Of a stretch of DNA of 64,000 bases, positions 41,501 through 44,500 are shown piece after piece. Position numbers: made by a program. Source of the stretch: an uncultured Nitrospiraceae bacterium (GTDB lineage Bacteria; Nitrospirota; Nitrospiria; Nitrospirales; Nitrospiraceae); contig CAWJWJ010000002.1 of assembly GCA_963846575.1 (NCBI GenBank), positions 256,001 to 320,000 on the forward strand, given 5' to 3'. Within the stretch, counting starts at the first letter, position 1. Each line of letters starts with the position of its first letter.

Positions 41501-44500
41501 CTATAGACGGGGTAGATCCCCATCACTTTGACGAAGAGCGAAACCCACTGGTTTTCATACTTGCCCTCGTGTCCTTCCTGGTAGAGCCGTTGCAACGACT
41601 GGTGCGGAGTCAGCGGTGAGGCGCCGCCGAATCCGGTCAGCAGTTCGTCATAACGTTCCGCTACCATGACGATACGGGTCATCTCCGAGGTGAATGCGCC
41701 TCTGGTTTCCGCTGGAAAGCCGCTACCATTCAGGTAGGCATGGTGCTCTGCCACAATTTGTTCAACCGCCGGAGCGAACCCTCCTTGCCGCTCGAGCAGA
41801 ATCGCGCCGGAGCGGGCGTGGGCCTCGTAGGCTCGGCGGTTCTGTTCTGACAGGATGGCGGAGGTATCATGGATCCGCTGAAGTACGGTCGGCGAGACCT
41901 GTAGGAGTCCGAGATCGTGCAGGAGCGCTCCGGTGGCAAGATCCTGGAGCGCAAACAGGTTGTACGCCGCGGCGTGAGCGAGAATCATCGAAAAGGTGCA
42001 GGTCGCGAGCGCATGTTCGCTGAGGGAGTGGTGCCCTCCGCGGCCTTGGCTGAAGGCGATGAACAGAGCACTGGTCGTGAGGGTTTTGGCCACCGCATCG
42101 ATTTCGTGAATGGTGTGTTCGGCCTTCTCAGGATCGACGACACCTGATTCGGTAATGCGCGCAAAGATCGACTGCACCGATTGTTCCAACTGTCGACGCG
42201 CCGTTCGGGCATCCTGCAGCTCCTGCGTCATCGCTTCGAGTGAGCGTACGGCCGATGACTTGGCCGATGAGGAGATCTTCGGGTGTATGGTCACATGCTG
42301 CTTTGCCGGGGCAGAGGCGGACGTCTCCGCCACGTCGAGCCCCCGGGCGGGATCAATCTTGAGTTGTTTCACCCCGGCTCGCCGTAACTTTTGAATCTGT
42401 TCGTCCGTGCGAATCAGAAATGAATGCCTGAAAAATGGCGAGCGGAACCATGCCAGATCCAGTTTAGCGACGTGCATTCCGATCCGAAGCGATTCGATGG
42501 TAATGTGCCGGTATGTCATGACCTGTGAGCGGAGGCGACTGGTGCGTAATCGCGCGCGTGCTCGCGCGCGTCCCCCTCTTAGTCTCGCGGCGCAGGCGCG
42601 GGATTCTTCAGAGTAACGATGGGTGATACGGCGGATGCGAGGGGCCGAGGAATATCAGGTGACGCGGTTGGTGCGACTGACAACCGGATGTCCATTCTGG
42701 GATTCTCCCGGTCTTGAAACTTGTACAGGTGGACCTCCACCACCCGATTATCATTCAGCCCCAGCCCTTCGCACATAGCGTCCTGCGCGATTTTCAGTCC
42801 TCCATCAGTATCCCGACGAAGCGCCGATGCAAAGAAAAAATGGATCGATAAGGAGAGGCTCGCCTGACGCAAGATTTGTCTTACATTAACACGATGTGGC
42901 GATTGGGCAAGCGCAACTAGGATTTGTTGCGCGACCAGACTCTTGTAGGCGCGTCCCTTGGCGGAAAGGAGACGACGTCCGTTGACGGTGGCATATTGGT
43001 GATTCACGCTGGGAGGAACCGGCAACGTCAGTTGAATGAAATCCTGAGCGACCAGCACCGCCAGCTGAGGCGGCATGCGCGGGGAACCTGTGGTGCGGGC
43101 TTTGACCGACTTGCGTGAGCGTGCAGGATTCTCGCCGCCAGCTGTGGACGGTTCGGTCGATGCGCGATAAGACGTAGACCTGAGCGTGACGGGGTTTTGT
43201 CGGGGAAGGGACACGCGGCGCAAGGGCCTGCCTATTACACTAGAGAAGATTTTGAATCTTAGCCATATCCTGTTCAAACCGATCTTCGGTTCTGGTGAGG
43301 TACCGTCGCCATTCCGCCGGGCCCCAGACCTCCAGTCGGTGATACATTCCCACGAGGAATATTTCCTGATCCTCATCCATGGGGACGAGCTTCCGAAGGC
43401 GGCTTGGAATGAGTACACGGCCGGCCTTATCAATATCCGAGATGCCGGCTTGCGACATCACATGATGCATGAACAGACGGCTCTGATCCTCATCCAGCGT
43501 GGTCCTGGTTCGCTCCAGTACCTTTTCCCACTCCTTGGCTGAATACATCCAAAGCGTCTGTTCCGTATTCTTCAAGAACATCACCTGGTTGCCTTCGGTC
43601 TCGAGGCGTTCCCGGAGAGGAGACGGAATCAGAAAACGTCCCTTTTCATCGACTTTGCAGAGGTATTCACCGGCAAACATGATGGGCACCTCCGGTCAAG
43701 GCCGCGGTGCGGGGGCGGAACGCTCTCGCAGCCACTGTTCGAGATCGGTGCGAACGAAGCGCCATTCCTTGCCCAGTTTGAATCCAGGCAGATGGCGGTC
43801 CTGAATATAGCGGTACAGGGTACGAGGGCTGACCTTGAGATACCGGCACGTCTCCGCCACAGTCAGGAGTTCGTTCTTGAGGTCGGTTGTCATGTCGAAT
43901 CAGAGGTAGTGCGAGTAAGAACATAGGAGCTAGGGTATGGTGCGTTTCTACCTCGATGGTAGGAGACAAGGCCAAGCCTGTCAAGTGATTATTCATGACA
44001 ATATGAGTCAGTCGAAGTCGGTAGGGCTCATGTCGGACAGTCCATGCTGCCCGTCTTCCATCGCGGAATCCACTTCGTCCCCAAGGTCCTCGCCCATCTC
44101 CTGCCCCATTTTTTTCATGAATCGGGCCATGCTCTGCGGATCGTTCTCATCCAATCCTCCAAGCTGGCTCGGGTCAGCGAGAGCCTCCAGGCGAGCCTCT
44201 TCAGATTTGGGAGAGGCGAATCGGGACATGAGTCGTTCCAGATCGGGGCTGTGACAGTGACGGCAGGACTGGGGCGGAGGCGCGCTGATGCTCAAGACTA
44301 ATCGGGTGGTTCGTTGTGTACATTGTCGACAGCGATATTCGTAGATCGGCATAGACTAGGCTCGCAGGTCCCCTGGTTGATCAAAGGCTGAGGGCGGCAG
44401 TGCTGAGTCCGGCACCATGCCCCTCTCGACCGAACGAGCAAGGGCGAGGACCGCCACCTCCAGAGCGCCAGCTTGGAGGAGAACTTTCGCACATTCATTC

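Follow-up and report, generated by a model that had tools for sequence, protein, structure and literature searches.

The RusA protein of Escherichia coli (prophage DLP12; PDB 1q8r, 2h8c, 2h8e; PF05866) is encoded by a gene described as promoterless and cryptic (PMC2628435). When expressed, it suppresses the loss of ruvAB or of ruvABC, and in ruvB or ruvC mutants it is inactive or only partly active, which is ascribed to masking of the junction by RuvA (PMC2265524, PMC2628435). In PMC1193525 the bacterial resolvases are taken to be two, RuvC and RecU, with RusA omitted as rare and prophage-linked. RecU occurs in RuvAB+ RuvC- lineages of the Firmicutes and Mollicutes, and like the gene discussed below it is non-orthologous to ruvC and unlinked to ruvAB (PMC1193525, PMC3403352). 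Aquifex aeolicus is described as lacking RuvC and RecU and as resolving junctions with RusA (PMC10956419; supplement of PMC3403352), an enzyme that cleaves junctions (PMC10956419). Unlike the Nitrospirales it also lacks RuvA and RuvB (PMC1193525), and these sources concern one species, not a whole order. Since RuvA and RuvB are missing, there is no masking problem in A. aeolicus. Sharples et al. are said to have found in 2002 that its RusA is not prophage-linked.

The 2012 study PMC3403352 counted 27 organisms that have RuvAB and no resolvase, for which its text suggested an unknown resolvase or a RecG-RusA route, and its Table S1 scores Ca. Nitrospira defluvii as RuvA+ RuvB+ RuvC- RecU-. An earlier note on the locus studied here had stated that nothing was in print for Nitrospira, which in view of this entry is not quite right. 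The open-access literature that we searched, taken without the supplements of Nitrospira genome papers, contained nothing on an order-wide pattern, a link to RusA or a loss of YqgF, and nothing on a chromosomal RusA clade in Chloroflexota. Databases already annotate the proteins of the order as RusA. New here is the lack of YqgF in two families.

We analyzed a window of 64,000 nucleotides from the genome of an uncultured Nitrospiraceae bacterium (order Nitrospirales) that contains a rusA gene behind mraZ (Table 1). The gene set of Nitrospirales is RuvAB+ RuvC- RusA+, a state that blocks RusA in E. coli. Their RusA shares the fold and residues R69, D70, D72, K76, and D91 of the E. coli protein at about 25-30% identity, and it differs in the replacement of N73 by G or S, a reshaped arginine loop, a helical insert, and an N-terminal extension. 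The gene is chromosomal and has a conserved promoter pattern, in contrast to the promoterless rusA of E. coli. Judging from sequence comparison, we consider RusA likely to be the housekeeping Holliday-junction resolvase of the Nitrospirales, and the data given below would probably be accounted for if a domesticated RusA had taken the place of the non-orthologous RuvC throughout the order. In this order of nitrite-oxidizing bacteria, where the standard RuvC is gone and the unrelated RusA is kept, the route of junction resolution is probably a different one.

Table 1. Features of the rusA locus, in window coordinates.
Feature	Position	Strand	Remarks
DUF3391/HD-domain protein, downstream neighbor	41281..42519	-	varies by genus; outside the conserved cassette
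rusA, probable full gene	42579..43223	-	214 aa, TTG start 16 nt past the mraZ stop
Shorter rusA ORF of the earlier note	42579..43076	-	165 aa from an internal ATG; whole RusA core inside
Active-site motif	42750..42815	-	corresponds to E. coli R69, D70, D72, (N73 to G), K76, D80, (D90 to N), D91
Layout of the 214-aa RusA			~55-60 aa N-terminal extension, basic and largely disordered, followed by the RusA core and a disordered tail
mraZ, single genome copy	43240..43689	-	PF02381, 95 bits; directly ahead of rusA, detached from the rsmH/dcw cluster
Small HTH_17 (excisionase-like) gene	43696..43896	-	PF12728, 67.5 bits; head of the cassette
Predicted sigma-70-like promoter of the hth-mraZ-rusA cassette	43956..43984	-	10/12 consensus matches, 17-nt spacer
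Zinc-ribbon gene, upstream housekeeping neighbor	44008-44352	-	common to most order loci
ComF-like phosphoribosyltransferase, upstream housekeeping neighbor	44356-45237	-	common to most order loci

The ORF at 42579-43076 (-) matches Pfam PF05866 RusA with 36.9 bits (cut-off 22.8), and the window protein aligns with E. coli RusA 1q8r at E 1e-6; the strict NCBIfam model PRK09786 gives it 35 of 200 bits. The open frame and the RusA match reported earlier for 42579..43076 are correct, and the start codon is probably another one. The ATG at 43076 is missing from the close relatives compared, and the TTG at 43223 is conserved in 18/18 distinct close relatives. Ahead of the RusA core, 113 of 119 distinct stretches have no stop in the rusA frame over 56 codons, compared with 50 and 17 for the two alternative frames. 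Over the initial 25 codons from the TTG, dN/dS is 0.24 among the 18 relatives. The true start is therefore probably the TTG, with a product of 214 aa. The median dN/dS of the core among the same relatives is 0.062, as expected of a domain under purifying selection. Residues 1-50 are predicted to be disordered (pLDDT about 50-60), and a short R-x-x-S-[YF]-R motif is found in the extension in many genera. RusA of family f4 has no N-terminal extension, so the extension is not essential in the order.

In the alignment with 1q8r (E. coli numbering throughout), window RusA keeps the DNA-binding R69 as well as D70, D72, K76, D80, and D91 and has G at position 73 and N at position 90. The active-site pattern is shared by 129/129 Nitrospirales loci, some of them from one genome, and the six residues kept are invariant across 28 order rows and 40 Chloroflexota-type rows. 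The D-x-D..K..D motif that had been called intact is so at D70, D72, K76, and D91, with N73 replaced by G (24) or S (4) in the 28 order rows; this position is N in 20/21 phage rows. The third catalytic aspartate is D91 according to PMC10956419, and D90 is named critical in the introduction of PMC1636454. D91 is invariant in all 116 aligned RusA rows, and position 90 is naturally D or N, being N in 7/21 phage rows. This conservation favors D91 over D90 as the catalytic residue and so indicates, at the level of the alignment, that the catalytic set of Nitrospirales RusA is intact. We rejected the change of D90 to N as a sign of a dead site on the same grounds.

N73 is described as invariant and required for optimal activity, with a minor role (PMC1636454, PMC10956419), and the structure of RusA with DNA shows it in contact with a phosphate (PMC1636454). 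In the order rows R66/R67 are also replaced by (A/P/S)L. With N73 gone, half of the arginine-rich DNA-binding loop lost, and N at a position named critical, RusA could have become a junction binder that cuts weakly or not at all. We give this reading hardly any weight, since the six residues are invariant in the order and Chloroflexota-type rows, the combination of constant D91 with N90 in phage proteins fits a catalytic D91 (PMC10956419), and N73 is said to contribute little. A structure predicted by AlphaFold from 28 order sequences (pLDDT 88) retrieved only RusA in Foldseek: 7 chains were hit at E<1e-3, every one of them RusA of E. coli, with TM scores of 0.78-0.84 by target length. By analogy with the RusA family, we infer that the protein is a homodimer.

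mraZ adjoins rusA, with rusA behind it, in 127 of 128 order loci, and no prophage genes occur among the neighboring ORFs examined around rusA in the window, which bears out the earlier description of an mraZ-rusA context without prophage genes. A gene found behind mraZ in 127/128 loci and present in 197/201 genomes does not look prophage-borne. The HTH_17 gene is found in 92 of the 128 loci and is absent from some lineages. Of 115 distinct regions upstream of the cassette, 110 carry a sigma-70-like pattern (mean 3.0 and maximum 6 after mononucleotide shuffling); as a predicted pattern match, the promoter of the cassette is conserved. mraZ has one match per genome in the order. It stands ahead of rsmH in 26/26 loci outside the order, which is not so in the window's own genome.

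The distribution of RusA was determined in 201 Nitrospirales genomes that are at least 85% complete and represent 4 families (f1-f4) and 33 genera. RusA was found in 197 of them (194 by Pfam and 3 more by an order profile), with the host type checked by profile in 50 + 5 genomes and by locus where fetched, and assumed from the Pfam match elsewhere. One of the 3 additions is broken across two reading frames in a draft that is 88% complete (G012:C86, L138-L139), probably through an assembly error because the other three f4 genomes carry RusA intact. The neighboring mraZ is missing as well from the four genomes without RusA, all of them drafts in 60-530 contigs (86-92% complete), and this suggests assembly gaps; for the housekeeping gene ruvA the count is the same, 197/201. 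Extra RusA genes are present in 6/197 genomes, and every one inspected is part of a phage-like or ICE-like region. The claim of a fixed single-copy RusA thus describes the chromosomal gene of 197/201 genomes and has to allow for these six genomes with further copies; in the window's own genome, which is 99.93% complete, there is a single RusA. Vertical inheritance of one chromosomal RusA within the order is supported.

RuvC was found in 1/201 order genomes, as a divergent, weak match (E 6e-5) among non-ruv genes, on a contig that we read as phage-like from neighbors without a family match. RecU, which belongs to a fold family unlike that of RusA, was found in 0/201. In the window's own genome the best RuvC matches had E 0.398 with Pfam and E 0.29 in a tblastn search with RuvC of a sister order, and neither RecU nor Hjc exceeded the cut-off. 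Five order genomes tested for further functions contained RuvB (5/5), RecG (5/5), and UPF0102/YraN (5/5), ERCC4 in 1/5, no Hjc over cut-off (0/5), and no endonuclease VII (0/5); the T7 endonuclease I, Rap/NinG, Ydc2/MOC1, and GIY-YIG families lay outside the scope of this survey. Both the near-absence of RuvC and the absence of RecU and Hjc that had been claimed agree with these counts. We rejected a missed divergent RuvC as an explanation: the Pfam and tblastn searches came back empty, as is the slot in the operon, and the same Pfam search detects the divergent RuvC of another family of the phylum, f15, at E 1e-15 or better. In that family (G209, G217, G225) RuvC is far more divergent than usual, with E values of 1e-15 to 1e-23 versus about 1e-45. 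The window's own genome also encodes a 285-aa protein in which a DnaJ domain is fused to an ERCC4 nuclease-like domain (L403:1423-2280; G000:C2, near 891734).

Outside the order the picture is reversed. RuvC is present in 59/62 genomes of other orders of the same class, and Nitrospirales RusA was found in 0/62 of them by the order profile and in 0/62 by Pfam. Among 151 genomes of the phylum outside the order, RuvC was found by Pfam in 149, and a broader RusA profile that matches 50/50 order genomes gave one weak match (E 0.0016). In 20/20 loci outside the order ruvC lies directly ahead of ruvA, with yebC ahead of ruvC in 16. In all 7 order loci that hold both yebC and ruvA, drawn from all four families, the two genes adjoin and leave no room for ruvC (gap of at most about 290 nt; 81 bp in the window's own genome; overlapping in G003). 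ruvC has been cleanly deleted from the ancestral yebC-ruvC-ruvA operon, so the ruv operon without ruvC is as the earlier note had it, and a loss in the ancestor of Nitrospirales is supported. That RusA "displaced" RuvC in this ancestor, as was also claimed, goes a step beyond the supported loss and presumes an order of gain and loss. In the ruv loci themselves, a Cys-rich 167-aa ORF without a Pfam match lies between ruvA and ruvB in G000, the window's own genome, and in G148 (L143:894-1397; G000:C1:973331-973834), and ruvB is apart from yebC-ruvA in both f2 loci examined.

ruvC was deleted once, in the ancestor, so the 197 genomes stand for a single event and the correlation between the two genes has the weight of one. 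The same ancestor also relocated mraZ, and rusA could have been fixed by riding with mraZ in a lineage that was losing ruvC, by coincidence and with no functional link. We regard this as very unlikely. A passenger would decay, yet the core of RusA has a dN/dS of 0.062 and its catalytic set is present in 129/129 loci; retention needs a function, and the loss of RuvC leaves one vacant.

Relatives of this RusA were sought by a profile search of 1.84 billion representatives and by a motif scan of genomes. The scan gave at least 120 loci (L149-L268), and 80 titled loci among the matches listed comprise 78 from Chloroflexota in the broad sense and 2 from Abditibacteria. Among the matches listed, the named relatives that come closest are encoded on chromosomes of Chloroflexota and Abditibacteriota and known from database annotation only; they share the G73 motif and show 35-51% identity. 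Phage RusA proteins reach at most 38% identity, and so the label "phage-type" that had been given to the gene is not upheld. The Chloroflexota/Abditibacteriota genes have housekeeping neighbors (e.g., GMP synthase, formyltransferase, IF-3, L20), and none of the 120 loci listed has mraZ beside rusA. Their proteins have a C-terminal W-x-F tail and no N-terminal extension.

In quick RusA trees (133 columns, with SH-aLRT as the sole support measure; the first omits four divergent phage-type rows and the second 39 rows in all), the mraZ-linked sequences of the order form one clade with SH-aLRT values of 88 and 85, and f2, f3, and f4 are each starred. There is thus moderate support in these alignments for monophyly of the mraZ-linked RusA. 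Order and Chloroflexota-type sequences share the G73 clade (SH-aLRT 89-96). Transfer from within Chloroflexota is not supported, as the order clade lies beside and not inside the Chloroflexota clade in these trees judged by SH-aLRT only, and at most 38% identity does not support direct descent from a known phage RusA. A second RusA copy in the Nitrospirales genome G045 is 50% identical, is without the extension, and sits at the base of the clade; a mobile element like the one that carries it is a plausible vehicle for rusA. The region around this short RusA of the host clade is ICE-like or phage-like (L041/L401-L402; G045:C3:1963000-1990000) and contains a Gp3-like protein, a TraG/VirD4-like coupling protein, a class II ribonucleotide reductase, a primase, a beta clamp, and a transposase, and metal-efflux-like genes come next after the short RusA. 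More generally, the Chloroflexota relatives reveal a large clade of chromosomal RusA genes that is unstudied in the papers searched.

RuvC was kept in 49 of 50 Chloroflexota/Abditibacteriota genomes with RusA (48 full length and one cut at a contig end), a set hand-picked from the 80 listed for longer contigs (48/49 without the unpublished G442). The mutual exclusion of RusA and RuvC described earlier therefore holds as complementary occurrence within the phylum and is local; we rejected it as a general rule because 49/50 of these genomes hold both. It also follows that RusA of this type can serve a job other than replacing RuvC.

YqgF (RuvX) bears on this point. It is present in 88/90 f1 and 4/4 f4 genomes (in the window's own genome at G000:C2:1053510-1053905), and it was found in 0/89 f2 and 0/17 f3 genomes, many of them single-contig; a YqgF protein query of five f2/f3 genomes returned nothing better than E 0.3. 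RusA is present in 86/89 f2 and 16/17 f3 genomes, so in these two families the main rival resolvase is removed. The earlier caveat that YqgF is also present is true of f1 and f4 and is weaker than stated, with 0/106 in f2 and f3. YqgF is reported to be essential in several bacteria, for 16S rRNA processing, and to resolve junctions in some only (PMC9601230). That f2 and f3 do without a detected yqgF despite this reported essentiality is an observation in its own right.

These distributions permit a reading in which RusA is an active accessory nuclease that is specific for structures such as forks, D-loops, and flaps, as it may be in Chloroflexota, with junctions removed mainly by other routes: branch migration by RecG/RuvAB, YqgF in f1 and f4, UPF0102/YraN, or an unrecognized nuclease. 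The coexistence with RuvC in 49/50 Chloroflexota-type genomes, the masking of junctions from RusA by RuvA in E. coli, the presence of YqgF in 88/90 f1 and 4/4 f4 genomes, some homologs of which resolve junctions (PMC9601230), and UPF0102 in 5/5 genomes all speak for it. YqgF was not found in the 106 f2/f3 genomes, however, and UPF0102 is also present in E. coli, a control in which ruv mutants stay repair-deficient. Within the phylum, moreover, RusA appears exactly where RuvC disappears. On balance we think an accessory role unlikely, though it is the alternative that deserves most attention, and we continue with RusA as the probable resolvase. In that capacity it would be a candidate for one of the 27 unexplained RuvAB organisms, extended to a whole order of major nitrifiers.

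A resolvase of this kind has to work beside RuvA. Masking could have been relieved by co-adaptation of RuvA in the order, a candidate that we rejected: a comparison of 27 order and 20 outside sequences showed no order-specific change at positions 79, 89, 100, 122, 127, 129, and 130, which PMC2265524 and PMC2628435 connect with octamers and masking. At position 122, where E. coli has an acidic residue, almost all order and outside rows have a small one, so weaker RuvA octamers could, as a speculation from this alignment, be ancestral to the phylum. With respect to the suggested RecG-RusA pathway, which in E. coli rus-1 strains goes with RecG and with a RuvA that is absent or does not mask, RecG is present in 5/5 genomes, and RuvA is present as well and unchanged in any order-specific way at the known positions. 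RusA may itself have changed, and escape from RuvA masking would possibly involve the G73 variant, the helical insert, or the basic N-terminal extension. A third RuvAB-coupled system, formed by RuvAB and a RusA that escaped masking and is the only recognizable resolvase in two families, is a tentative proposal from these gene contents that we put forward with considerable doubt. The incompatibility known from E. coli, where RuvA shields junctions from RusA, becomes testable here, as the Nitrospirales keep both proteins.

In the scenario that we envisage, the ancestor of the order would have acquired its RusA from a clade that is otherwise fixed in Chloroflexota chromosomes. The gene would have been placed behind mraZ under its own promoter, and ruvC would have been lost from yebC-ruvC-ruvA-ruvB in the same ancestor. 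By analogy with E. coli RusA, the protein would form a homodimer and introduce symmetric, Mg2+-dependent nicks into four-way junctions. As further steps, RecG and RuvAB, both retained, may move junctions to cleavable sites, and RusA may gain access once RuvA has left, or from the side that a lone RuvA tetramer leaves uncovered. The change of N73 to G/S and the reshaped R66-R69 loop would probably alter sequence preference or rate and not abolish cutting.

Some minor observations concern the mraZ part of the cassette. The MraZ protein of the window shares no more than 25-35% identity with its counterparts in sister orders. GTGGG-type repeats, which we take to be MraZ boxes, lie ahead of mraZ in 19/26 loci outside the order, and MraZ-type repeats were found in 0/115 regions ahead of the hth-mraZ-rusA cassette. 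In the window's own genome, GTGGG-type repeats remain ahead of rsmH (G000:C1:1274560-1274735) although mraZ has moved, which suggests that the relocated MraZ regulates in trans. Just before the promoter, at window positions 43996-44010, there is an inverted repeat TGAC-N7-GTCA; in the window its first three bases double as the stop codon of the gene upstream. The repeat is present in 55/83 loci with the HTH_17 gene versus 4/29 without it, among loci that are related to one another, and from its sequence it is a possible candidate operator.
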